Source: Candidatus Scatosoma sp. (GTDB taxonomy: Bacteria > Bacillota > Clostridia > Christensenellales > Borkfalkiaceae). From it: DNA of 53,239 nucleotides. The stretch's first letter is position 1. Every line of letters starts with the position of its first letter. The stretch spans positions 1-53,239 of the forward strand of contig JAZORL010000185.1 of assembly GCA_045656625.1 (NCBI GenBank). Direction: 5' to 3'. Under the pieces are notes generated by a model. It did not search any database, was not told the DNA's origin, and saw nothing but the letters and a program-made list of their open reading frames with translations. Positions 3,288 to 49,898 of the stretch are shown piece after piece. A program made the position numbers and the translations under genes.

Positions 3288-4139
3288 ATGTTTTCTTTTT
3301 TACCGCAAAATATACAGGATGCAATTAAACATCTTAATGCACAAGATTTATATGAAATTCGTTTGCGCGCCAATAATCCCGTACGTATTAATTATAAGGG
3401 ATATTATCATTTCTTAAGCCTTTATGGTTTGACAGATAGAGCGGATAAGGCGTTGATATGTGATGCGGTGGATATTGAAGATTGTGTATATCGCGCTGGA
3501 AAATACTCCGTCTATTCCGTTGAAGAACAAATAAAACAAGGCTTTATAACGGCGGAAAATGGCGTAAGAATTGGTTTGGCAGGGGAATACGTGTGGAACA
3601 ACGGAAAACCGCTTACAATCCGCAATTTTACATCTTTATGCGTGCGAATACCACATGAAATTATAGGATGCGGAGAGGAAATTTATCAACGTTGTATGTC
3701 AGACAAAGTACATAACCTATTAATCGCATCGTCGCCTGGGCAGGGAAAAACAACAATTTTACGAGATTTGGCACGGATTTTGAGTGTGAAAACACAAAAA
3801 AATGTGTTAATATGCGACGAACGCGGGGAAATATGCCCTCGCGGAGCTGCTGCAACCTGCGACGTAATCAAATATGCGGATAAAGCAACGTCGTTTGAGG
3901 CAGGGATACGTGCTATGCGTCCTGATATTATGGTAACGGACGAGCTTTCGATGGAAGATTGTAAGGCGGTGCGACGAGCAAAAAACGCAGGAATTACGGT
4001 GATTGCAAGCGCGCATTTAACAAATATGGAAAAAATCCCCGATGCTTTCCTCGGTTTATTTGATTTTTTGGTTTTATTGGACGAAAAAGAGATAGGAAAA
4101 ATAAAAGGGATATTTGACGGGTATGGTAGAGCGATATGA
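3288..4139 (+). CDS. spoIIIAA: Stage III sporulation protein AA (AAA-type secretion ATPase)
   Basis: Walker A SSPGQGKTTILRD and Walker B-like IMVTDEL are present. It is the first gene of an eight-gene operon with the canonical spoIIIA order. Confidence 0.9.
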   Translation: MFSFLPQNIQDAIKHLNAQDLYEIRLRANNPVRINYKGYYHFLSLYGLTDRADKALICDAVDIEDCVYRAGKYSVYSVEEQIKQGFITAENGVRIGLAGEYVWNNGKPLTIRNFTSLCVRIPHEIIGCGEEIYQRCMSDKVHNLLIASSPGQGKTTILRDLARILSVKTQKNVLICDERGEICPRGAAATCDVIKYADKATSFEAGIRAMRPDIMVTDELSMEDCKAVRRAKNAGITVIASAHLTNMEKIPDAFLGLFDFLVLLDEKEIGKIKGIFDGYGRAI

Positions 4140-4627
4140 TGACGAAATTTCTATTTGGCATTGCCTTGGTGGCGTTTGGAAGCTTTTGCGGGTACTTTTT
4201 GGCTAAGAAATATCGCCAACGAAAGAGCTTTTTTTCGCAATTACGTCTATTTAACGAGCGTTTCATTAATGAAGTTTCTTATTATCGTCGTCCAATTCGT
4301 GAATTTGCAAATCTCTATGCTTTTCAGGGGGAATTTCATTCTTTATTGACGGATTTTTTACAAAATATGGGGGAAAATGGAGGTGGCTGGTCGATTGATG
4401 AGCGAGAGTACGCCTTTTTGAAAAAGGAGGAACGGGGAGCGATTCATGATTATTTTTTAATGATAGGACGAGGGGATAGTGCCTCGCAAAAAGCCTACTT
4501 TTCGTCGGTGAGTAGTGCCATTTCAAAATGGGATTCTGAGGCAAGTTTGGCGGCAAAGAAGTATGGCGATTTATACATAAAACTTGGATTTTTATGCGGA
4601 TTATTTATTTTAATTTTAATCATGTAA
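4136..4627 (+). CDS. spoIIIAB: Stage III sporulation protein AB
   Basis: ATGA overlap with spoIIIAA. It has N- and C-terminal TM helices and a size and position typical of SpoIIIAB. Confidence 0.8.
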   Translation: MMTKFLFGIALVAFGSFCGYFLAKKYRQRKSFFSQLRLFNERFINEVSYYRRPIREFANLYAFQGEFHSLLTDFLQNMGENGGGWSIDEREYAFLKKEERGAIHDYFLMIGRGDSASQKAYFSSVSSAISKWDSEASLAAKKYGDLYIKLGFLCGLFILILIM

Positions 4628-4636
4628 AGAGGTAGT

Positions 4637-4834
4637 ATGGAGATTGGAATTCTTTTCAAAATGGCTGCGATAGGGATTATTATCACGGTAATTTGTCAGA
4701 TATTAAAAAAGTCCGATCGTGATGATATTGCGACGTTGGTAGGGATCGTGGGACTTGTAATTGTGTTAACGCTCGTCGTGGGGAAAATTGGGGATTTATT
4801 TACTCAAATAAAGACGATTTTTGATTTAACGTAG
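4637..4834 (+). CDS. spoIIIAC: Stage III sporulation protein AC
   Basis: 65-aa two-TM protein at the correct operon position. Confidence 0.8.
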   Translation: MEIGILFKMAAIGIIITVICQILKKSDRDDIATLVGIVGLVIVLTLVVGKIGDLFTQIKTIFDLT

Positions 4835-4843
4835 GCGGTAATT

Positions 4844-5239
4844 ATGGCGGAAATTATAAAAGTAATCGGCGTGGCTTTCGTTACGGCGCTTACAGCGCTT
4901 TTATTGCGAGGTACAAAGCCTGAATTGTCTTTTGCTGTAACGGTTACAGGCGTTATTGTGATTTTACTATTTATTGTGAATTATATGAAAACAACCCTTG
5001 TTTTTCTTACGGAAATTTCTGGAATGACGGGGTTGGATAATGGGTTGATTAAAATTCTTTTGAAAATTGTCGGTATTGGGTATTTAACGGAATTTAGTGC
5101 TGGAATTTTGAATGATTTTGGGAGTAATGCAGTAGCCGATAAAGTGATTTTAGCTGGTAAATTAACAATGCTCTTTTTAGCCATTCCCGTGATAAAAACA
5201 TTGTTGCAGCTCATGAAAGGCTTTTTAGGACTTGTATGA
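4844..5239 (+). CDS. spoIIIAD: Stage III sporulation protein AD
   Basis: 131-aa polytopic membrane protein at the correct operon position. Confidence 0.8.
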   Translation: MAEIIKVIGVAFVTALTALLLRGTKPELSFAVTVTGVIVILLFIVNYMKTTLVFLTEISGMTGLDNGLIKILLKIVGIGYLTEFSAGILNDFGSNAVADKVILAGKLTMLFLAIPVIKTLLQLMKGFLGLV

Positions 5240-6447
5240 AAAAGGTCGCTTGTTTCTATAAAAAAAACACGAGAATAATATACATATTTTTTATAATTTT
5301 ATGCATATTGTTTCTTTTTACAAACTTTGAATGCAATCCTCTTACGGCAAAGGCGCAAATGGATAAAGCGACGGATGCGGAATTGGAAGAAAATATTCGA
5401 GAACAGCTTGGTCAACTCGAACTGGAAGAATTGGAAAAATACGTACAATCCATTTCTTCCTTTTCGGATAAAGGTGTAATGGAGCGCATTATCGACTTCG
5501 TGAAGGGCGAAAAATTTGATTACGATGGATTTGGTAGACAAATTTTAAGCGTTTTCTTTTCCAAAGTGCAGGAAATTTTGCCAGCCTTTGTATGCATTGC
5601 TGCCATCGCCGTGCTTTCAGGGCTTATTTCTTCCATCAAAAGTCAAGCCCTATTTAATACATCAACGGACTTAATTTCCTTGATTACATATACGGCAACG
5701 CTGATTCCGCTTATTGCGGTCTTAATAGAGTGCTTTTCCCAAACAAAAGGCAGTATTTTGGAGATGGAAAAACAAATAAAGCTCGTCTTTCCGTTGCTCT
5801 TAACGCTTATGGCGGCGAGCGGGAGTACTGCAACCGCAGCAATTTGCCGACCTGCGGTAGCATTTTTTGGATCAACTATTGTTTCTATTATCCTCACGAT
5901 TGTTCTTCCGATTACTGTGACAATTATTGTTTTTTCTATGGCGAGTCACTTGACCAACGAACTAAAAATCGGAAAGTTCACCGCTTTTTTTAAGAGCATT
6001 AATAAGTGGATTATCGGTATCAGTATTACTGTGTTTGGGCTATTCTTTACTTTGCAGGGATTGACGGCGGCGCATAGTGATGGGATTGTGCGTCGGGCGG
6101 TGAAATATGCGATAGGGAATGGTATCCCTATTGTGGGTGGTTTTCTATCGGGTGGATTTGATTTGACGGTAGCAGGTAGCGTTTTAATTAAAAATGCGCT
6201 GGGTAGTATGAGTATTTTTTTGATGATTTCGGTGATTTTTGAACCACTCGTATTATTAATAGCCGTTAACGTGCTTTTGCGCTTAACTGCGGCAATTTCG
6301 CAGCCTTTGGGGGATGGAAAAGTCGCAGATTTTCTCGGGGAAACGGCGGAAAACTTAAATTACTGTACAGCGTCTTTATTGTTTACGGCGTTTATGTATT
6401 TTTTAACGATTGTATTGATGATTACAGCATCGGAGGCGCTCTTTTGA
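5236..6447 (+). CDS. spoIIIAE: Stage III sporulation protein AE
   Basis: 403 aa with a signal/TM N-terminus and a multi-TM C-terminal domain. It overlaps its neighbours by 4 nt. Confidence 0.85.
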   Translation: MKKVACFYKKNTRIIYIFFIILCILFLFTNFECNPLTAKAQMDKATDAELEENIREQLGQLELEELEKYVQSISSFSDKGVMERIIDFVKGEKFDYDGFGRQILSVFFSKVQEILPAFVCIAAIAVLSGLISSIKSQALFNTSTDLISLITYTATLIPLIAVLIECFSQTKGSILEMEKQIKLVFPLLLTLMAASGSTATAAICRPAVAFFGSTIVSIILTIVLPITVTIIVFSMASHLTNELKIGKFTAFFKSINKWIIGISITVFGLFFTLQGLTAAHSDGIVRRAVKYAIGNGIPIVGGFLSGGFDLTVAGSVLIKNALGSMSIFLMISVIFEPLVLLIAVNVLLRLTAAISQPLGDGKVADFLGETAENLNYCTASLLFTAFMYFLTIVLMITASEALF

Positions 6448-6941
6448 ACGGGTATTTGTTATCGATTATCGGTACGGTATTGTTGAGTGCGATTGTCACG
6501 GTCGTGATTCCCAATGGGAAAACGGCGGGTACGGTCAAGGGGATAGCAAGGCTTGTTTGTGTGCTTGCAATTATTGCGCCGATATTACGTTTTTTTAAGA
6601 CGGGAGAGATGGATTGGACAACGTCGAAAATTGACGGGAACAATTTTTCAAAAAGTGTCATAGAAATCGATCAAGACTTCATAGAGTATTACAGCGAAAG
6701 CCGAGTACGTGAGACGGAAGGGCAAATAGAAACTCTTCTTCTAGAAGAGTTTCATGTGAAAGCGACGGTTTCATTGGAATGGGAGTTGGAAAGTGAAACG
6801 GTGGCGAACCGATATGAATGGGAACGAATACGCATCAAGGGAATTTACGTAAAAATGCCCGAGGATTTCTCGGCGGATGTTTGGAAAAGCGTGCAGAAAT
6901 ATTTGAAGCAAACGTATTGTAGCGAGGTGATCCTTGAATAA
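6444..6941 (+). CDS. spoIIIAF: Stage III sporulation protein AF
   Basis: TTG start overlaps the spoIIIAE stop. Two N-terminal TM helices precede a soluble domain, at the correct operon position. Confidence 0.75.
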   Translation: MNGYLLSIIGTVLLSAIVTVVIPNGKTAGTVKGIARLVCVLAIIAPILRFFKTGEMDWTTSKIDGNNFSKSVIEIDQDFIEYYSESRVRETEGQIETLLLEEFHVKATVSLEWELESETVANRYEWERIRIKGIYVKMPEDFSADVWKSVQKYLKQTYCSEVILE

Positions 6942-7317
6942 TTGGAAGAATCAAACGATGGAAAAGAAAAACCGCTTATTCACGAGTAAAGCAAAGGATT
7001 TGCTTATACTTGCAGGGCTTGGTTTGGTATTAATTTTTGCGTCGTGGAAGATATTTCAAGGGGATCCAAAGCCGTCGAGTAAGACGATGGTTTCCATGAC
7101 GGCAACCGAACAGAAAATTGCGAGGTTGTTAGAGGAAATTGACGGAGTGGGCGATGCGAGTGTGATTGTATGCGAAACGGAAGATGAGGTAAAAAGCGTG
7201 GTTGTTGTATGTGAAGGTGCGGACAATCTACGCGTAATGATAAACGTTCGCGAGGCGGTAAGCGCTGCACTCGGAACTGACCAAAACGTGATAAAAATTT
7301 ATTTGAAAAAAGAATAA
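6934..7317 (+). CDS. spoIIIAG: Stage III sporulation protein AG (short form)
   Basis: One TM helix is followed by a C-terminal ring-building-type domain with the signature VVVVCEGA. The start is either TTG 6934 or ATG 6958. Confidence 0.75.
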   Translation: MNNWKNQTMEKKNRLFTSKAKDLLILAGLGLVLIFASWKIFQGDPKPSSKTMVSMTATEQKIARLLEEIDGVGDASVIVCETEDEVKSVVVVCEGADNLRVMINVREAVSAALGTDQNVIKIYLKKE

Positions 7318-7330
7318 GGAGAAAAAAACT

Positions 7331-7819
7331 ATGTCAAACAAAAAGAAAATCATCTTAATGTCCTCGCTTGTATTATTGCTTGCCATCACGGCAATCTTTA
7401 ATTTCATTTTTGCGAATAAGACGACGGCAACCAGCGCGGATGGTGGGGTGACGACGGCGAATTACTTTACGACCTATCGTGCGGAACGTACGGCAACGCG
7501 GAATCAAGAGCTTGTGCAACTTGACAGTGTAATTGCGCTCTATGAAGAAGGGGAAGAAAAGTATGAAGAAGCGACGGGAATGAAAATGGAAATCGTTGCG
7601 GCAATGGAGCAAGAACTTGTATTGGAAAATATGGTGAAATCGCTTGGTTTTTCCGATGCAGTCGTGTCAGTTTCAACGGAATCTGATAACGTAAACGTCT
7701 TTATCAATTCCGCGGAATTGAATTATGATACTGCGCTTTCGATTTATAATATGCTCAAAAATGAGACGGGCGTCGTCGCTGGAAACGTAATTATCATGCC
7801 CGTCTATTCAGAAAGCTGA
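7331..7819 (+). CDS. spoIIIAH: Stage III sporulation protein AH
   Basis: AAGGAG RBS, N-terminal TM helix, and last position in the operon. Confidence 0.75.
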   Translation: MSNKKKIILMSSLVLLLAITAIFNFIFANKTTATSADGGVTTANYFTTYRAERTATRNQELVQLDSVIALYEEGEEKYEEATGMKMEIVAAMEQELVLENMVKSLGFSDAVVSVSTESDNVNVFINSAELNYDTALSIYNMLKNETGVVAGNVIIMPVYSES

Positions 7820-41625: not shown

Positions 41626-41712
41626 GCCGCTGTGGTGGAATTGGCAGACGCGTCGGACTCAAAATCCGATGGTAGCGATACCGTGGCGGTTCGACTCCGA
41701 CCAGCGGCACCA
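41626..41712 (+). tRNA. tRNA-Leu (anticodon CAA), CCA encoded
   Basis: Acceptor stem GCCGCTG/CAGCGGC, anticodon loop ctCAAaa at 41658-41664, long variable arm, T-arm GGTTCGACTCC, and 3' ACCA. Confidence 0.9.

Positions 41713-41833: not shown

Positions 41834-41836
<3 letters not shown>
41797..41836 (-). terminator. Terminator of the NahK-like gene
   Basis: aagtgcccgt-cttaaca-acgggcactt forms a 10-bp stem with T-rich flanks. Confidence 0.75.
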
Positions 41837-42919
<1,083 letters not shown>

Positions 42920-43068: not shown

Positions 43069-43950
43069 ATGAACAAATCAACCAAGAAATTTTATATGCA
43101 TAAAATATCCAATCTTTTGAACGTGCAAAAGATCGTCACGATCCACTATCAAACGCTTGGAAAAAACTATGTTTTTCCCGAAGAACAGCACGATTTTTGG
43201 GAAATTAACTATGCGGACAAGGGAAACGTTTTCGTTGGGATAGATGGCGAAAAAATCGAACTTAAACAAGGTGAAATGCTCTTTATTAAACCCAATCAAC
43301 CGCATTTTATGGAAAGCGGAGACAAGGAACCGCACGTATTTATTATTTCCTTTGCTTGTCGTTCGGAATCGATGAACTTTTTCTCGGAAAAGAAATATGC
43401 TGTGCCTGAAAATTACCGCTACTTACTGCAAAATATTATGTCAGAGGCGGAAGACACGTTTGATTTGCCTGAATTCGACCCGAACTTAAATGCATTAAAA
43501 CTGCGTGAAAGCCCCAATCTTGGCGGCGAACAAATTATTAAAAATTCGCTTGAAACGCTACTTATTTATTTGTTGCGCACTGCGCAAAATCGTGCGCACA
43601 CGCAAGAATTCTTTGTTTCCAAAATTGCGGACTCTTCCGAACTTGAAGATGAAATCGTGCGCATTCTTACCTCAAAAATTTACGGCAAGTTCACGCTTGC
43701 GGATTTGAGCAACGAACTCCACTATGGCACGACAAGACTTTGCACCTTTTTCAAAGAAAAAACAGGCAAGAGTATTTATCAAACTTATTTGAAATTGAAG
43801 ATTGACGAGGCGAAACGCCTTATTCGTAAACAAAAAAATTTCTCGGAAATTACGGATATGCTTTGTTTTGACTCTATTTCCACTTTTGCATTTGTATTCA
43901 AAAAACACGTAGGCATGACGCCGAGTGAATATCGAAACAGTATAAAATAA
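43069..43950 (+). CDS. AraC-family transcriptional regulator (cupin sensor + HTH)
   Basis: N-terminal cupin-like region and a C-terminal double HTH (FSEITDMLCFDSISTFAFVFKKHVGMTPSEYR). Confidence 0.88.
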   Translation: MNKSTKKFYMHKISNLLNVQKIVTIHYQTLGKNYVFPEEQHDFWEINYADKGNVFVGIDGEKIELKQGEMLFIKPNQPHFMESGDKEPHVFIISFACRSESMNFFSEKKYAVPENYRYLLQNIMSEAEDTFDLPEFDPNLNALKLRESPNLGGEQIIKNSLETLLIYLLRTAQNRAHTQEFFVSKIADSSELEDEIVRILTSKIYGKFTLADLSNELHYGTTRLCTFFKEKTGKSIYQTYLKLKIDEAKRLIRKQKNFSEITDMLCFDSISTFAFVFKKHVGMTPSEYRNSIK

Positions 43951-43984
43951 AAAGAAACGAAGCGTTTCGCTTCGTTTCTTTTTA
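43948..43984. terminator. Bidirectional terminator (araC-like / ABC exporter)
   Basis: aagaaacgaagcg-ttt-cgcttcgtttctt forms a perfect 13-bp stem (43952-43980) with A/T runs on both sides. Confidence 0.85.
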
Positions 43985-45652
43985 TTTCACTGTTATAATC
44001 GTACCATTTTCAATATTCAAAATAGAATCGGCAATTTCTAATGCTGCAGGTCTATGCGTCACAATAAGACACGTTCGATTGTTGAGTTCCTTCAAATTTT
44101 TTAATAATGCGCCTTCCGTTTCGGTATCCAATGCGCTCGTTGCTTCGTCTAAAAGTAAAATTGGACGATTGGATAATATTGCTCTGGCGACAGCTAAGCG
44201 CTGTCTTTGCCCTTCGGATAAACCGCTGCCCGTTTCCAACAAAACGGTATCTAATCCATCGGGTAAATCGTATACGAAATCCGCACAAGCAACGTTGAGG
44301 GCATTTTTTATTTTTTCTTCGTCAAGCGTTTCCTCGTTAAAGAAAACTAAATTCTCTCGAATTGTACCCGAGAACAAGAAATTTCCTTGCGGAACGTAGG
44401 CAAAAAGTTCTCTATATTTTTCCGTGAGATCTTTATCGCTGTCTTTATAAACAAGCGAAATTTCCCCTGAATTTTGACGAAAAACACGCAATAAAAGCTT
44501 AAATAACGTACTTTTACCTGAGCCCGATGCTCCCGTCAAACAAACAATTTTTCCTTTTTCAAGCAAGGCGGAGGCGTTTTCTAATACTGTTTCTCTACCA
44601 TAAGTAAAGCCGACGTTTTCAAAGCGAATTGCGGATAAATTTTCGTACTGCAAATCCACTACTTCTGCCGATGTATTTTCTTGATCAAGATTGCTGATTT
44701 CCAACAAGCGCTCGCTGCTTGCAAGTCGTGCATAATAGGCAGGTGCAAGCGAGGAAAAGCCTGAAAGCGGCTGTTGAAATTGCATCAAAAGAAGAATAAC
44801 GGAAAGTATTGCTCCGTAATCGTCCATCTTGCCGTTTAATACGCTTACACTACACCAAACAACGGCAAAAATTAAACCAAAATTGCTTAAGAGATTGAAA
44901 AATCCATTCATTAATGAGCGCAAAACGTTTCGTTTCATGCGTTTATCAAAATATACGTTCGTTAACGATTGTGATTTATCGGTGTATTTCCCTTCTGCAC
45001 TATACGCCTTAACGGTCATAATTGCGCCCAAACCTTCTTGCATAAAGGAACGTACTCTTCCATCGCTTTCCATTACTTCTTTATGCCTTTGCTTGAGCTG
45101 TTTTCTAAAAAGGGCAAATAAACCACAAAAAATACCGCCGCAAACGATATAAATAAGTGTAAACCAAGGATCGATCGTAAGCAACGCGACGATTGCCCCA
45201 AAGGTTTGGGCAACCATACCTGCGATTGCAGGCATCAATCCTGCCGTCGTCACGCTGATTTCTGAAATATCGGAAGTGAGACGATTCATAAGCTCGCCGC
45301 TATGATATTCGTTAATTTTTGCGTAATCAGCACTCAAAATTGCGGAAAAGGTTTTTACGCGCAATGCAGAGAATATTTTTGCTCTTAATTTTTCGGTTAA
45401 ATAGCCCGTCCAAGTCTTTAATGCGATTCTAAAAAGCAAAAGCCCGAGCAAACAACCCGAAAAAATCCAAAGCCGTGTGGCTTGCTGATTGGTTGCACTA
45501 TTAATAAGATAACGCACCATGTACGCAAATGCCAAAGAAAATACGGTAGAAAGCACCGTTAAAATAGTCAAAAAAACGATAAATGCAGCATACGGGCGTA
45601 TCTCGTTTTTTAACCATACTTTTCCTTGATTCATTTGCTTGATTTTTTTCAT
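43982..45652 (-). CDS. ABC exporter, fused TMD-NBD half transporter
   Basis: About six N-terminal TM helices, Walker A GASGSGKST, signature LSEGQRQR and Walker B LLLDEATSALD. No C39 peptidase domain. Confidence 0.9.
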   Translation of the reverse strand: MKKIKQMNQGKVWLKNEIRPYAAFIVFLTILTVLSTVFSLAFAYMVRYLINSATNQQATRLWIFSGCLLGLLLFRIALKTWTGYLTEKLRAKIFSALRVKTFSAILSADYAKINEYHSGELMNRLTSDISEISVTTAGLMPAIAGMVAQTFGAIVALLTIDPWFTLIYIVCGGIFCGLFALFRKQLKQRHKEVMESDGRVRSFMQEGLGAIMTVKAYSAEGKYTDKSQSLTNVYFDKRMKRNVLRSLMNGFFNLLSNFGLIFAVVWCSVSVLNGKMDDYGAILSVILLLMQFQQPLSGFSSLAPAYYARLASSERLLEISNLDQENTSAEVVDLQYENLSAIRFENVGFTYGRETVLENASALLEKGKIVCLTGASGSGKSTLFKLLLRVFRQNSGEISLVYKDSDKDLTEKYRELFAYVPQGNFLFSGTIRENLVFFNEETLDEEKIKNALNVACADFVYDLPDGLDTVLLETGSGLSEGQRQRLAVARAILSNRPILLLDEATSALDTETEGALLKNLKELNNRTCLIVTHRPAALEIADSILNIENGTIITVK

Positions 45653-45667
45653 AATACTATCCTATCG

Positions 45668-46135
45668 TTATTTTTGTTTGCGTGGAAAGAAAAATCTAAA
45701 TATTTTTGCGCAAAATCGTCTAATCTTACATTTCGTAAGAACGAAAACTCGGCGTATTTTATAGGTCTTTAAGCGTTTATTCGCATAAGCGATATATTTT
45801 TCATCCGTACACAAAACGTGCTTTCCCTTGCGAAAAAACTCTGTTAAAACGCCAATTACCGCTTCCTCGGGTACGTTTTCGTCGGAATAACAGTTATCAC
45901 CGCGAATGATATAGCCTGTATCCGTTGGTTCTAATACTCGGTGTAAAATATAGGCAGTCCCACGTTTATAAAGCGCAACGTCTAAACGTTTTAACTTTTC
46001 CGTTTTTGGGCGCACGACAATGGTATCTCGCCGATTTTTAAGCATAGGTAACATACTTACGCCTACTGTCGGACCGATATATACGCCCTTTTCTAAAAGC
46101 ACGTCTTCAATTTTGAGTTTTTCAACGTCGCTCAT
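45668..46135 (-). CDS. S26-type (SipW/Sec11-like Ser/His) peptidase lacking an N-terminal membrane anchor
   Basis: GVSMLPML (Ser box), YILHRVL (His where SPase I has Lys) and IRGDNCYSDE (GDN box). ATG 46135 overlaps the upstream stop (ATGA). The C-terminal tail is very basic. Confidence 0.65.
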   Translation of the reverse strand: MSDVEKLKIEDVLLEKGVYIGPTVGVSMLPMLKNRRDTIVVRPKTEKLKRLDVALYKRGTAYILHRVLEPTDTGYIIRGDNCYSDENVPEEAVIGVLTEFFRKGKHVLCTDEKYIAYANKRLKTYKIRRVFVLTKCKIRRFCAKIFRFFFPRKQK

Positions 46136-46395
46136 TCGGCAAACCCGTTTCTCGTCAATATTTCCACGAATCTTTCTACGTCGGTGCGTGCTTTTTCGTC
46201 CGCAACTTCGTATTCCGAGCAAAGTGCCTCTACACCATCGTCAACGGAATGTTCTTCCGTATAAAAACGCCATAAAAATGCGCCTGTCGAATTCAAATTA
46301 ATCATTCCATGGAATTCTTTGCTCATTTTTCCTACGGGTACGACTACCGTTTCACCGCCGACTTCTCTTAAAACAAACCCCTTTTTAATTTGCAT
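46132..46395 (-). CDS. PqqD-family protein (candidate RiPP recognition element)
   Basis: 87 aa. The MQIKKGFVLREVGGETVVVPVG ... INLNSTGAFLW ... EYEVADEKARTDVERFVEILTRNGF pattern is typical of small PqqD-like proteins. Its ATG lies 2 nt after the upstream stop. Confidence 0.65.
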   Translation of the reverse strand: MQIKKGFVLREVGGETVVVPVGKMSKEFHGMINLNSTGAFLWRFYTEEHSVDDGVEALCSEYEVADEKARTDVERFVEILTRNGFAE

Positions 46396-46397
46396 AA

Positions 46398-47114
46398 TTA
46401 TTTCTCCGCGTAATTTTTCCCTGTTAAAGCCTCGAAAGATTTTTGTACAGCTTCTTCTGATATATCGCATTTTAATAAATAGGCAGGTATCATTTCAATA
46501 AGCTTGTCCGCCAATTCTAACGTTGCGATTGCGCCCTCTTCCGTATCAGGGATTAAAAGCTGTGCAAATAAGCGACTTGTCACTTCCTTATTCGTCAATT
46601 TAGTAATGGAATTTTCTTTGGCTTGCTCTAAAAAGCAAAGTCCGCAAAGGGGCGCTTTTGTTTTCTCGCCCCACCCTTCTTTTCCTTGCCAGGGCGTGCC
46701 AAAGGCAATAAATTTCTCTTCCGTACTTGCCAAAATCGGCTTATCACCATTGACGATTTTCGTATTGGGAATATTTTTTAACCAAAGCTTGGTATGGGTA
46801 GATTTGCCCGTACCGCTACGCCCTAAAAATGCGTACGCTTTCCCTTCGTATTCCAAAATAGACGAATGCATTAAAATGCGTCCGAATAAAGGCATTTGCA
46901 TACAGATACTGCGATAAAGACAAATATTTTCAATGTACCCGTCCGAAAAATTCGGGGAAAGCATTTTCTCTTCCTCAAACTCTTCTTTCGTCACCTCCGC
47001 CGTAATATCTACGGGCGAGGACTGATCCTCGGAAAGGTACTTATAACAAAATTTATCCGTGTATGCGTATTGATTTTTGATTAGAACACGAAGTCCTGCA
47101 AGCTCGTATACCAT
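46398..47114 (-). CDS. HPr-kinase-related P-loop protein (HprK C-domain-like)
   Basis: GRSGTGKSTHT P-loop sits mid-protein after a beta-rich N-half and is followed by GDKP/GTPW segments. This resembles HprK-related kinases found in peptide-modification clusters. Assignment is by motif only. Confidence 0.5.
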   Translation of the reverse strand: MVYELAGLRVLIKNQYAYTDKFCYKYLSEDQSSPVDITAEVTKEEFEEEKMLSPNFSDGYIENICLYRSICMQMPLFGRILMHSSILEYEGKAYAFLGRSGTGKSTHTKLWLKNIPNTKIVNGDKPILASTEEKFIAFGTPWQGKEGWGEKTKAPLCGLCFLEQAKENSITKLTNKEVTSRLFAQLLIPDTEEGAIATLELADKLIEMIPAYLLKCDISEEAVQKSFEALTGKNYAEK

Positions 47115-47124
47115 AAACTAAAAA

Positions 47125-47295
47125 TTAATAACTACTTGTCCACTCCCCATCGGGATCGTCAGGATTGCTGGGGCGATTGCTGTTAGGGGGTTCTTTAATC
47201 GTTTCCGTCACGCAATCCGAACACCCAGCAAATGCAAATGCGACGACAAAAGTCAACGCCATGCAAAGGGATAAAAGTGCTCTTTTCAATTTCAT
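47125..47295 (-). CDS. 56-aa secreted/lipoprotein-like small peptide (candidate precursor)
   Basis: AAGGAG lies 6 nt upstream of ATG 47295. The sequence is MKLKR + hydrophobic core + lipobox-like FAGC, followed by a 32-aa Pro/Asn/Asp-rich tail ending TSSY. The longer track ORF (to 47346) would overlap purB. Confidence 0.6.
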   Translation of the reverse strand: MKLKRALLSLCMALTFVVAFAFAGCSDCVTETIKEPPNSNRPSNPDDPDGEWTSSY

Positions 47296-47305
47296 ATCTA
47301 ACTCC

Positions 47306-48751
47306 TTACACGCGTACGTCGCCCTTTTCACCAAGGAGCGTAGCATGCTTTTCTAAAATGGGATCGATTTCATTGGCGATAAATTCAACCGTTTGCGAGG
47401 GAGCTCTACCGATAAATTTACTTGCATCCAAAATTTCGTCAATCTTATCCCAAACGGGGCGGAACATTTCGTCCGCTTTGATTAAATCGATCAAATTATT
47501 GTCTTTTCCTTCCACTTTCACGTTTTTACCTGCTTCCATGGAAAGCTGACGGATTCTTTCGTGGAGTTCCTGTCTATCTCCACCTGCTTTTACACAACCC
47601 ATCATAATATTTTCCGTTGCCATAAACGGTAATTCCGCACGAATATGTTTCGCAATAACCTTTTCATAGACAACAAGGTTTTCCGCAACGTTCATATAAA
47701 TATTCAAAATTGCGTCTACCGACAAGAAGGCTTGTGCGTTTACGATACGGCGGTTTGCGGAATCGTCTAACGTTCTTTCAAACCATTGCGTTGATGCAGT
47801 CAACGCACTATTCATCGGCAAGGAAATTACGTATCTTGCCAATGCGCCGATACGCTCCGAACGCATAGGATTGCGCTTGTATGCCATCGCCGACGACCCG
47901 ATTTGGTTCTTTTCAAACGGTTCTTCGATTTCCTTCATATTTTGTAAAATACGGATATCATTCGAGAACTTATACGCACTTTGCGCGATTTGCGAAAGTA
48001 CGCAAAGGATATTATAATCGAGTTTGCGGGGATACGTTTGACCCGTCACGCCGTATACTTTATCATAACCAAGCTTGGAAACAACTTTTTGTTCAAGGGC
48101 TTTAATCTTTTCTTCGTCACCGTTGAAAAGCTCCATAAAGCTTGCTTGCGTACCCGTCGTACCCTTTACCCCGCGAAGCTTGATGTTTTCCTTCGCATTC
48201 ATAAGGTTTACGTAGTCCATTTCTAAATCTTGCAACCAAAGAGTTGCACGTTTGCCAACCGTCGTGAGTTGCGCAGGCTGTAAATGGGTAAAGCCAAGCG
48301 TAGGCACGTCTTTATATTTAAGGGCAAATTTTTTCAGCTTGTCCATAACGTTGACGAGCTTTTTCAAAATAATATCAAGCGCTTCGTCAAGCATAATTGC
48401 TTCGGCGTTGCAGTTTACAAAGCAACTGGTAGCCCCAAGATGAATAATGGGTTTCCCCTTTTGCGCGTACTCGCCGTATGCCTTTACGTGCGCCATAACG
48501 TCGTGACGGACTTCTCTTTCAAACTTTGCCGCCAATTCATAATCGATTTCGTCGGCGTATTTTTTCAAATCGTCTACTTGCTCTTGCGTGACGTTCAAGC
48601 CAAGCTCCATTTCCGATTCCGCAAGCGCAATCCAAAGCTTTCTCCAAAGCTTGAAACGCTTTTCATCGGAAAATGCGTGCTGCATATCTTTGCTTGCATA
48701 ACGGGTAATAAGCGGGTTAGTATAAATGCTGTTATCAATCATATTTTTCAC
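47306..48751 (-). CDS. purB: Adenylosuccinate lyase
   Basis: Fumarate-lyase signature GSSAMAYKRNP, 481 aa, and N-terminal YTNPLITRYASKDM. Confidence 0.95.
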   Translation of the reverse strand: MKNMIDNSIYTNPLITRYASKDMQHAFSDEKRFKLWRKLWIALAESEMELGLNVTQEQVDDLKKYADEIDYELAAKFEREVRHDVMAHVKAYGEYAQKGKPIIHLGATSCFVNCNAEAIMLDEALDIILKKLVNVMDKLKKFALKYKDVPTLGFTHLQPAQLTTVGKRATLWLQDLEMDYVNLMNAKENIKLRGVKGTTGTQASFMELFNGDEEKIKALEQKVVSKLGYDKVYGVTGQTYPRKLDYNILCVLSQIAQSAYKFSNDIRILQNMKEIEEPFEKNQIGSSAMAYKRNPMRSERIGALARYVISLPMNSALTASTQWFERTLDDSANRRIVNAQAFLSVDAILNIYMNVAENLVVYEKVIAKHIRAELPFMATENIMMGCVKAGGDRQELHERIRQLSMEAGKNVKVEGKDNNLIDLIKADEMFRPVWDKIDEILDASKFIGRAPSQTVEFIANEIDPILEKHATLLGEKGDVRV

Positions 48752-48757
48752 CTATCT

Positions 48758-49279
48758 TTATACTTTTTCAGGCTCGGGATATTCAACGCCGAACGTTTCT
48801 ACCGTGACGGACTTCATCTTTTGCTCTTCGTAGGGCTTATCATACCAATCGGTCTTGACCGAAGCAATTTCGTCGACCGTTTCCATGCCTTCAATCACCT
48901 TACCAAACGCCGCGTATTGACCGTCGAGATAATCTGCATCATCGTGCATTACAAAGAATTGTGAGCCTGCTGAATCGGGGTGTTGCGCTCTCGCCATTGA
49001 GAGTACGCCACGCACGTGCTCAATATCGTTTTTCGTAAAACCATTGCCTGCGAATTCCCCTTTAATACGATAGCCAGGGCCACCCGTACCACGTCCGTCG
49101 GGATCACCGCCTTGAATCATAAAGCCTGCGATTACACGGTGAAAAATAATGCCGTTATAATAACCTTTCTTTACGAGAGAGATAAAGTTATTTACAGTAT
49201 TCGGCGCTTTTTCGGGATAAAGCTCTGCCTTAAAGGTTTTTCCATTTGTCATTTCAAAAGTTATAATAGGATTGCTCAT
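48758..49279 (-). CDS. ppiB: Peptidyl-prolyl cis-trans isomerase, cyclophilin type
   Basis: FHRVIAGFMIQGGDP and SQFFV motifs. Confidence 0.92.
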   Translation of the reverse strand: MSNPIITFEMTNGKTFKAELYPEKAPNTVNNFISLVKKGYYNGIIFHRVIAGFMIQGGDPDGRGTGGPGYRIKGEFAGNGFTKNDIEHVRGVLSMARAQHPDSAGSQFFVMHDDADYLDGQYAAFGKVIEGMETVDEIASVKTDWYDKPYEEQKMKSVTVETFGVEYPEPEKV

Positions 49280-49291
49280 ATTTTTTGCTCC

Positions 49292-49747
49292 TTAATCTTC
49301 GTATTTTTCTACCGCGACATTTGCTTCCGTAAAAAGTTGCAAGGAAAAATCGTCGGGATAACCATTTTTATAAACTACGCGCGTAATACCTGCATTAATA
49401 ATCATTTTTGCGCATATTACGCAGGGTTGGTGCGTACAATATAAAGTTGCACCGTTGATGTTAATGCCGTATTTAGCGGCTTGGACAATCGCATTTTGTT
49501 CTGCGTGTACAGCAAAGCAAAGCTCGTGCTTTGTACCGCTCTCAATATTGAGTACGCGGCGTAAGCATTCCCCTTTTTCCTCGCAGCTTTTAATCCCTGC
49601 AGGAGCGCCGTTATAACCTGTTGTCATAACGCGCTTATCTTTTACGATGACTGCCCCAACGTGGCGGTTTTGCTGATAACAGCTCGACCAATTCGCCACC
49701 GTTTCCGTAAGCTCCATAAAACGTTTGTCCCATTTGCCCATCGCCAT
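49292..49747 (-). CDS. comEB: dCMP deaminase (ComEB-type cytidine/deoxycytidylate deaminase)
   Basis: Zinc motifs HAEQNAI and PCVICAKMI. 151 aa. Confidence 0.88.
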   Translation of the reverse strand: MAMGKWDKRFMELTETVANWSSCYQQNRHVGAVIVKDKRVMTTGYNGAPAGIKSCEEKGECLRRVLNIESGTKHELCFAVHAEQNAIVQAAKYGININGATLYCTHQPCVICAKMIINAGITRVVYKNGYPDDFSLQLFTEANVAVEKYED

Positions 49748-49898
49748 AAAAATTGCTCCTTATATTATAAATAATATAACAGCATAATTATAGCACGATT
49801 TTTTGTAAAAATCAATCCTTTATAAAATATTTTCGGGCGTGAACGCAACTTTTTGGAAAAAATTATAAGAAAATATTCCCTTTTTTGTTTTTTTCTGT

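Follow-up and report, generated by a model that had tools for sequence, protein, structure and literature searches.

Linear polyphosphorylated peptides (LPPs) were described in Bacilli by Popov et al. (Nat Commun 2026; PMC13381572). Their gene clusters combine a peptidase resembling signal peptidase I (SpI-like), a discrete recognition element of the kind found in pathways for ribosomally synthesised and post-translationally modified peptides (RiPP recognition element, RRE), a kinase resembling HPr kinase (HprK-like), an MsbA-like transporter and an uncharacterised nucleoside triphosphate transferase. Expression of the lppA-K-B-S-D-N cluster of Paenibacillus alginolyticus DSM5050 in B. subtilis revealed LppK as the primary modifying enzyme, which places one to four phosphates onto Ser3 of the core peptide, and LppS (S29, H68, D93) as the peptidase that cuts the leader after Thr-1, only when LppB presents the precursor; an Asp of LppB hydrogen-bonds a Tyr of the leader. 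The final product and its biological role are still open (PMC13381572). The paper focused on cluster 1 of its sequence similarity network (SSN), while clusters 4 and 9 are only tabulated, with the precursor fields given as 'ND' (PMC13381572).

Here we consider a five-gene cassette in a 53,239-nt stretch of DNA from Candidatus Scatosoma sp. (contig JAZORL010000185.1; this whole stretch is called the window below). Its genes, termed A, K, B, S and D, encode a candidate precursor, an HprK-like kinase, an RRE, an SpI-like peptidase and an MsbA-like exporter, which is the same order as in the LPP clusters, and the locus is probably a divergent, reduced relative of those clusters. The catalytic triad of the peptidase and the aromatic-pocket residues of the RRE are kept, and a lasso cyclase occurs in neither system. 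Judged on its genes, the cassette is nevertheless not a strict LPP member but a divergent sister form, since it lacks the LppN nucleotidyltransferase, its peptidase and RRE are nearer to SSN clusters 9 and 4, and the YxxP leader is missing. Four features make it a variant of its own: it has fewer genes, its peptidase and RRE belong to a different subfamily, its candidate precursor is built in a new way, and it is inherited vertically within an operon.

A preliminary description of the same DNA, made from the sequence without database searches, had placed the cassette in no named class and had seen no recognisable core modifying enzyme in it. The first of these statements is superseded, as the informal class name LPP now exists (PMC13381572) and the cassette would be its divergent relative. 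The second is resolved by the kinase, which plays that part in LPP systems and so accounts for the apparent gap. The accompanying guess of a linear phosphorylated peptide as product was well founded, given the LPP gene order and the direct homology (PMC13381572).

Identity and conservation of the kinase, RRE, peptidase and exporter

Profile and structure searches have established the identities of K, B, S and D, and the families first proposed for them from the sequence (an HPr-kinase-like P-loop protein, a PqqD-like protein, an S26 Ser/His peptidase without an anchor and a half-ABC exporter) have all been upheld. K (46398-47114, minus strand; 238 aa) is a ScmC-family kinase with a P-loop of the HprK and phosphoenolpyruvate carboxykinase (PEPCK) fold. 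A local copy of Pfam gave a P-loop match alone; every relative of K carries the precomputed Pfam annotation PF27840 'ScmC', and the best NCBIfam match is TIGR04249 ScmC (E 2.8e-5), with TIGR04352 HprK-related kinase A matching more weakly. A PDB profile search with the kinase alignment returned generic P-loop matches and nothing else, and K could be placed only by comparing folds. The AlphaFold2 (AF2) model, built from 23 homologues with a predicted local distance difference test score (pLDDT) of 95, had ATP-dependent PEPCK and HPr kinase/phosphorylase as its top Foldseek matches (E ~1e-6, probability 1.0). The motifs GRSGTGKSTH (the P-loop), NGDKP and GKE are invariant, even among relatives at 30-45% identity. 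Several ScmC-like cluster representatives, P0291 (624 aa), P0316 (631), P0381 (565), P0366 (763) and P0392 (687), are twice to three times as long as usual, which suggests a kinase fused to another domain.

D (43982-45652, minus strand; 556 aa) is an MsbA-like half-ABC exporter in which a transmembrane domain and a nucleotide-binding domain are joined, with PF00664 and PF00005, matching TIGR02203 MsbA at E 3.9e-86 and TIGR02204 at E 3.6e-77. According to the supplement of the LPP study, the kinases of the Bacilli clusters match TIGR04249/TIGR04352, the peptidases TIGR02228 and the transporters TIGR02203/TIGR02204 (PMC13381572). K is thus an HprK-like kinase of the type that marks LPP clusters and D an MsbA-like exporter of the same sort; the best matches of the window proteins are again TIGR04249, TIGR02228 and TIGR02203.

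B (46132-46395, minus strand; 87 aa) matches the PqqD family PF05402 at E 1.7e-16. Its gene sits between K and S, so that a discrete RRE adjoins the kinase and the peptidase, as in LPP clusters. Among true RREs in the PDB, B matches LppB itself best (9x8z_B; pairwise E 4e-8). In an ungapped comparison, the residues with which LppB binds the leader, N33, Y60, D70 and F74, fall on N35, Y62, D72 and F76 of B, all invariant or nearly so in an alignment of 69 relatives. In pairwise comparison B falls outside the clade of LppB-like RREs: its matches to the LPP RREs are partial (24-36% identity, E 1e-8 to 1e-5), while it aligns over its full length with the proteins tabulated as 'RRE others' in SSN clusters 4 and 9 (37-44% identity, E 1e-21 to 1e-25).

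S (45668-46135, minus strand; 155 aa) is an LppS-like homologue of archaeal/ER-type signal peptidase I, with TIGR02228 as its best match (E 1.9e-6). The motifs GVS27MLP, LH65RV, RGD80N and SD85E are invariant and contain the Ser27/His65/Asp85 triad. An AF2 model (pLDDT 81) consists of a beta-barrel core followed by a basic C-terminal helix of 38 residues; its best Foldseek matches, SpsB, SipA, UmuD' and LexA, place S in clan SF. Neither a hydrophobic membrane anchor nor a signal peptide was found in the sequence or the model. S shares 25-30% identity with LppS-type proteins (hhalign probability 96.9%, E 1.7e-10), and S29, H68 and D93 of LppS align to S27, H65 and D85, so that it is a Ser/His/Asp peptidase like that of the LPP system. 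By pairwise scores against sequences from the supplement of the LPP study, S lies outside SSN cluster 1. The nearest sequences belong to cluster 9 (uncultured Ruminococcus and Firmicutes CAG:56; 33-38% identity, E 1e-18 to 1e-19) with 70 bits, and clusters 4 and 3 also score above the cluster-1 sequences tested (at most 36 bits).

The sequences nearest to both S and B are therefore the pairs of SpI-like peptidase and 'RRE others' of clusters 9 and 4, which come from an uncultured Ruminococcus sp., Firmicutes CAG:56, Dehalobacter, Desulfosporosinus and Anaerocolumna (PMC13381572, Supplementary Data 1). Their RREs share with B the N-terminal pattern MKIKxGFxLRExxG; in contrast to the window, no kinase or exporter is reported for those pairs (PMC13381572). 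Overall, S and B of the window are just 25-36% identical to LPP-type proteins.

The same S26B-type Ser/His lineage includes SipW of B. subtilis, the peptidase for TasA and TapA. SipW is membrane-anchored and acts on exported proteins, whereas S has no predicted anchor, is paired with an RRE and lies outside the bona fide SipW cluster, SSN cluster 2. LppS has itself been described as a SipW homologue (PMC13381572).

Two further kinds of cluster share parts with the cassette. Paeninodin-type lasso clusters, with the kinases PadeK and ThcoK, also place an HprK-like kinase that acts on a ribosomal peptide beside a discrete PqqD-type RRE and an ABC exporter, and the best NCBIfam matches of B are lasso PqqD models (under their cut-off). 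One could thus imagine the cassette as the remnant of such a cluster after loss of its cyclase and its B2 protease. Of all the alternatives weighed here this is the one to which we attach the least probability. No gene for an Asn-synthetase-like cyclase or a transglutaminase-like B2 cysteine protease lies within ~8 kb on either side of the cassette, in line with the preliminary description, which had noted that the lasso cyclase, the leader protease and radical-SAM enzymes were lacking. A decaying remnant would not keep all four genes intact and conserved, as they are in at least 80 species and, beyond these, in a very large family. A dedicated SpI-like peptidase stands in place of B2, as in LPP clusters, and lasso RREs from the same Bacilli are more distant from B than LPP-type RREs and 'RRE others' are. 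The paeninodin-type kinases target a C-terminal Ser, whereas proteins of the A family end in Tyr, Phe or His. The remnant was rejected on the intactness and wide conservation of the genes and on the flanks, where cyclase and B2 were not found. A paper on rumen lasso peptides leaves S24/S26 peptidases unmentioned.

The other is the SynChlorMet cassette, which we take, following the TIGRFAMs description, to be ScmC and ScmD together with two radical-SAM/SPASM enzymes. K belongs to Pfam ScmC and has TIGR04249 as its best NCBIfam match, and B also matches ScmD (TIGR04248). Both are equivalog models, with cut-offs of 125 and 100 bits, respectively; K scores 23.6 bits and B 28, far short of them. 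The flanks of the cassette hold no radical-SAM/SPASM genes, and a strict SynChlorMet cassette was rejected on this ground and on the sub-threshold scores. A literature search on SynChlorMet/ScmC and on RREs with HPr kinase gave nothing useful.

It is evident that the four genes travel together well beyond this genome, a co-occurrence on which the first proposal of a peptide-processing module depended. The genome loci studied are the best 80 of 252 GTDB species genomes with close kinase relatives, all of them uncultured gut Clostridia, many labelled Candidatus Scatosoma; the order K-B-S-D is held in them almost without exception, usually directly after purB. The 80 metagenomic loci extend further, as their kinases are nearly all 34-44% identical to that of the window (four closer, Scatosoma-type kinases have 61-70%), and K, B and S stand together in 43 of the 44 loci that have at least 1.5 kb on both sides. 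Gene orders there include KBS(D)(N), BSK, SKB(D)(N), DNBSK and KBNSD. In an exhaustive search clustered at 50%, ScmC-like proteins numbered 8,126 cluster representatives at E <= 1e-3 and 431 at E <= 1e-30.

The nucleotidyltransferase N (PF14907, the family of LppN) is part of this wider picture. Three PF14907 proteins used as tblastn queries found no such gene in the 53-kb window. It is present in 26 of the 80 metagenomic loci and directly after D in six deep-branching genome loci, one of which, L041, reads A-K-B-S-D-N, the full lpp order. The simplest reading of these sequences is an ancestral module of six genes, from which N was lost in the purB-linked Scatosoma clade. Unlike the LPP clusters, which are patchy in capsule loci of Bacilli, the cassette looks to have been inherited vertically beside purB in gut Clostridia of this clade.

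This apparently vertical inheritance and the operon-like arrangement with purB, ppiB and the dCMP deaminase gene would also suit a housekeeping module for export or quality control, in which the ScmC-like protein is a generic ATPase and S a conventional signal peptidase. We regard this as highly improbable, since a conventional signal peptidase has its active site at the outer surface of the membrane, where S, having neither an anchor nor a signal peptide, would not have it. Discrete RREs are, besides, characteristic of RiPP pathways, and all genes of the LPP set, the nucleotidyltransferase among them, occur in deep-branching relatives.

Some loci depart from the common layout. Two copies of the cassette occur in each of three metagenome-assembled genomes (MAGs): L007/L064 (JAZSMB01), L014/L020 (JAZSGC01) and L012/L080 (JAGAIW01). 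The two copies differ, their kinases are just 59-68% identical to that of the window, and in two of these MAGs each copy is seen with purB beside it; such pairs are more likely to reflect bins of mixed species than true paralogues. A common human-gut lineage (L109-L128) has B-S-K alone (for example L113, 4987-6576), with a longer kinase of 269 aa, no ABC exporter and no A-type ORF nearby, flanked by acyl-CoA synthetase-like and chloride-channel-like genes. In L095 (4287-5291) and L129 (4295-5260) a gene of ~320-335 aa inside the module encodes an N-terminal membrane anchor and a coiled coil, and the L095 protein has a weak polysaccharide-deacetylase match. This hints that the module is linked to cell-envelope polysaccharide in some distant clusters, as noted for the LPP clusters of Bacilli.

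The small upstream protein and its C-terminal tag

A (47125-47295, minus strand; 56 aa), recognised as an open reading frame (ORF) with a Shine-Dalgarno sequence, is the first gene of the cassette. The signal- or lipobox-like N-terminus that the preliminary description saw in it satisfies a PROSITE-like lipobox pattern: it begins MKLKR and runs to AFAG before Cys25. With its charged n-region, hydrophobic h-region and lipobox, A would be a bacterial lipoprotein by pattern match. Its linker is acidic and rich in Pro, Asn and Asp, and it ends in the C-terminal tag GEWTSSY-COOH.

The recurrence of A among relatives shows it to be a genuine, conserved gene, firmly linked to K. An A gene lies directly 5' of K in 26 of 79 scorable genome loci, with two tandem copies in L011. 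The proteins there, 42-91 aa long, share a positive segment, a hydrophobic segment, a variable acidic middle and the conserved C-terminus [D/E]-x-W-T-x-N-Y-COOH. Among 32 representatives of the family, Trp stands at position -5 in 31, Thr at -4 in 25 and Asn at -2 in 24; the last residue is Tyr in 26, Phe in four and His in two. The lipobox rule is satisfied by 22 of the 32, the others having a plain membrane anchor, and the tails are net acidic in all. A profile search of a database of 5.8 billion proteins gave 29 matches, of which 25 sequences were read: 23 belong to the same WTxNY-type family and two are unrelated and weak (E >= 2). For two of the matches the genomic context was looked up, and both lie directly 5' of K.

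Similar genes recur directly 5' of K at a kinase identity of just 34-42%. The A-type ORFs of these distant relatives encode ~85-215 aa, with a lipobox or membrane anchor, a long low-complexity body rich in Ser, Gly, Asp, Asn and Glu, and C-termini such as WTGYY, WTGFY, WGSLF, WKPWF, WNPWF and WGKVF. In 18 of 26 K-first distant loci the A-type ORF ends 0-123 nt from K (18 of 23 without the Scatosoma-type loci). Longer A-type proteins carry a second, weaker motif, (D/N)-(F/L)-G-(G/S), for example NDFGG, VVDFGS or GDFGSLFGS, at 15-40 residues before the tag, or up to ~60 in L102; it was seen in L001 (6720-6992), L096 (5547-5984), L102 (5293-5943) and the upstream ORFs of L093 and L100, and is missing from the 56-aa peptide of the window. 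It could be a cleavage or recognition site.

Pro-peptides of the Phr/CSF kind have a signal peptide, a variable linker and C-terminal signal residues. The layout of A, with its signal peptide, variable linker and conserved last five or six residues, resembles them, and spo0A and an AraC-type regulator are close by. It is conceivable, though very unlikely, that A is a secreted signalling pro-peptide of this kind, with the conserved C-terminal pentapeptide as a quorum or sporulation signal and the cassette as its processing and export machinery. No RRNPP-type receptor adjoins the cassette, and one tag is kept across dozens of species, though signalling peptides usually diversify; the distant A proteins, long and of low complexity, are unlike pheromone precursors, and LppS, the homologue of S, acts on a cytoplasmic, RRE-presented substrate (PMC13381572). 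The Phr-like pheromone was rejected on the conservation of the tag across species and on the distant A proteins.

A is instead the likely, though unproven, substrate of the cassette. We infer by homology with the lpp system what follows on phosphorylation and its acceptor, on where the precursor is cut, on the sequence of events and on the biological function. B would act as an RRE adaptor, recognising a short motif with an aromatic residue in a ribosomal precursor and presenting this precursor to K, which would transfer phosphate from ATP, possibly several phosphates, to Ser or Thr. B would also present it to S, the soluble Ser/His/Asp peptidase, for cutting, and D would export the product. 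The best candidate for the substrate is A, in which a lipobox or membrane anchor is joined to an acidic, disordered tail; its C-terminal W-x3-Y/F/H tag may be what the RRE or the kinase recognises, a 'follower' and not a leader. This role of the tag is suggested by its being the sole conserved element of A and by the RRE keeping its aromatic pocket, including the Asp. The LPP precursors are built the other way round: the YxxPxVLxHQxIxFET leader at their N-terminus is conserved and their C-terminus varies. The phosphorylated Ser3 of P. alginolyticus directly precedes Trp (FET/AQSWNKG, the slash marking the cut), and several other LPP cores share SW(N) (PMC13381572), which may be taken as a hint for the acceptor, a lead and not a test.

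Several observations weigh against the view that the locus is a relative of the LPP clusters with A as its substrate. LPP activity was shown by experiment in P. alginolyticus, while the clade of the window is known from genes alone. The scores of K against TIGR04249 and of S against TIGR02228 are under the curated cut-offs, and B is absent in six relatives, which form one clade in the kinase tree. The strict leader pattern YxxPxVLxHQxIxFETxxS was found neither in the six-frame translation of the window nor in 0.97 Mb of related loci; a relaxed pattern gave one unconvincing match (L017) and none in the window. The Sec- or lipoprotein-type N-terminus of A resembles no LPP or lasso leader. The acceptor cannot be placed within the tag, as Thr at -4 is not universal (WGKVF, WKPWF, WNPWF) and Phe or His can end it; the Ser/Thr-rich body of A is at least as likely to hold it. 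Most of all, A is absent beside the cassette in 53 of the 79 scorable close relatives, whose interval between purB and K, just 13-50 nt, leaves no room for it. The conservation of the small ORF that the preliminary description presupposed is thus borne out as a family 5' of K, but not beside the cassette in about two-thirds of the close relatives. In the genomes without A, the genes K, B, S and D are all intact, and their RREs are as conserved as those of the A-bearing clades; the ligand of the RRE need not then be A, or A-type genes may lie elsewhere, a question which the profile search for A had no power to settle.

These points are the basis of the most serious alternative, in which K-B-S-D works like the LPP enzymes while A is an ordinary small lipoprotein or membrane protein, perhaps an accessory or immunity factor, and the precursor is encoded elsewhere. 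In the loci without A, no substitute small ORF was found within ~6 kb, nor any other C-terminal motif, and the alignment of RREs shows no residues specific to the A-bearing or the A-less group. The lipobox of most A proteins implies Sec/Lgt/Lsp processing and not cytoplasmic maturation, and some LPP precursors of Bacilli are likewise encoded 'elsewhere in the genome' (PMC13381572). On the other side, the architecture of A and its W-x3-aromatic end persist directly 5' of K at kinase identities of 34-42%, its position is that of lppA, and the distance from the stop codon of A to the start of K, 0-12 nt in most loci, suggests translational coupling. In the Scatosoma-like clade, A is seen only directly 5' of K (26 tree-scored loci and two looked-up contexts), and the tag pattern occurs otherwise in a single antisense ORF (L049) that lacks the A architecture. 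We consider this alternative unlikely, though by no means negligible. The presence of A tracks clades of the kinase tree and is found on several deep branches, which suggests that A is ancestral and has repeatedly been lost or moved.

Genomic setting and transcription signals

The five minus-strand ORFs and their spacing stand as first described: A starts 10 nt after the purB stop codon, and the gaps that follow are 10, 2, -4 (an ATGA overlap) and 15 nt. The Shine-Dalgarno sequence, AAGGAG at 47307-47302, shares bases with the stop codon of purB and stands 6 nt 5' of the ATG of A. The ORF list also holds longer calls for S (184 aa, 45668-46222, TTG start) and B (112 aa, 46132-46470, ATG start); alignments of homologues support the shorter starts chosen originally (S at ATG 46135, B at ATG 46395) as the real ones.

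Downstream, the cassette ends at an intrinsic terminator (43945-43987) found by scan and RNA fold, which serves both strands, as had been described, and is stronger than first stated; the stem, then put at 13 bp, comes to ~16 perfect pairs, with up to 20 counted by the scan, and its RNA fold of -28.9 kcal/mol has a z-score of -9.9 against shuffles. With an A-run and a T-run on its flanks, the hairpin is able to end both the cassette and the convergent AraC-family gene. Upstream lie genes with Pfam matches for dCMP deaminase, a cyclophilin-type peptidyl-prolyl isomerase (PPIase) and purB (47306-49747, minus strand). The scan of the window found no terminator-like site between purB and A, and from the start of the dCMP deaminase gene to the cassette the sole minus-strand match is a weak 6-bp stem within the deaminase gene itself. 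A good promoter-like site precedes that gene (49815..49787). It is therefore plausible that the cassette is co-transcribed with these housekeeping genes. The earlier statement that neither a terminator nor an obvious promoter separates purB from A is right on the former; on the latter, a weak promoter-like match (9 of 12 positions) lies within purB at 47442..47415, and co-transcription is put no higher than plausible.

Within ~8 kb, the genes on one flank are those for AraC, APH, tRNA-Leu, PolA and CoaE, and on the other purB, PPIase, dCMP deaminase, GroEL and Spo0A. The AraC-family regulator (43069-43950, plus strand) faces the cassette in convergent orientation, with the gene for an APH-family phosphotransferase (41834-42901, minus strand) on its far side. 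Several relatives (L001, L088, L089) have this pair 3' of the cassette as well; L004 lacks it there, and in L084, a relative without PqqD, an APH-family gene lies directly 5' of the kinase gene. The tRNA-Leu (CAA) at 41626-41712 (plus strand) is the sole Rfam/ARAGORN RNA match in the window. At 3288-7819 (plus strand), ORFs of 283, 163, 131, 403, 165, 127 and 162 aa fit the spoIIIAA-AH operon by their sizes alone; this operon is ~36 kb from the cassette in the window and directly 3' of the ABC gene in L004 (10372-14726), which implies rearrangement between close relatives.

Meaning for the LPP family and gut Clostridia

LPP clusters were described only in 2026 and only in Bacilli, and the same machinery is now seen to be widespread in uncultured gut Clostridia, where it is paired with a different substrate architecture, that of a signal, lipobox or anchor segment, an acidic disordered body and a W-x3-Y/F/H tag. 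The A-type proteins are a previously undescribed kind of small membrane-anchored acidic protein and the candidate substrate, and their anchor points to a destination at the cell surface. The tag, a short and conserved candidate recognition motif, makes the family more tractable, and the cassette of the window offers a natural minimal version, without the nucleotidyltransferase, for dissecting the kinase and the peptidase.

A bolder and rather doubtful reading would make the Clostridial K-B-S-D(-N) systems a separate RiPP-like class, with a C-terminal follower tag and an anchored, disordered, acidic substrate that is phosphorylated or polyphosphorylated and exported as a surface polyanion, a near-housekeeping trait inherited vertically. 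Were this true, such a surface-tethered polyanion would be a protein-based functional analogue of lipoteichoic acid. And if the tag should prove to be the ligand of the RRE, the usual leader-first picture of RRE recognition would change.

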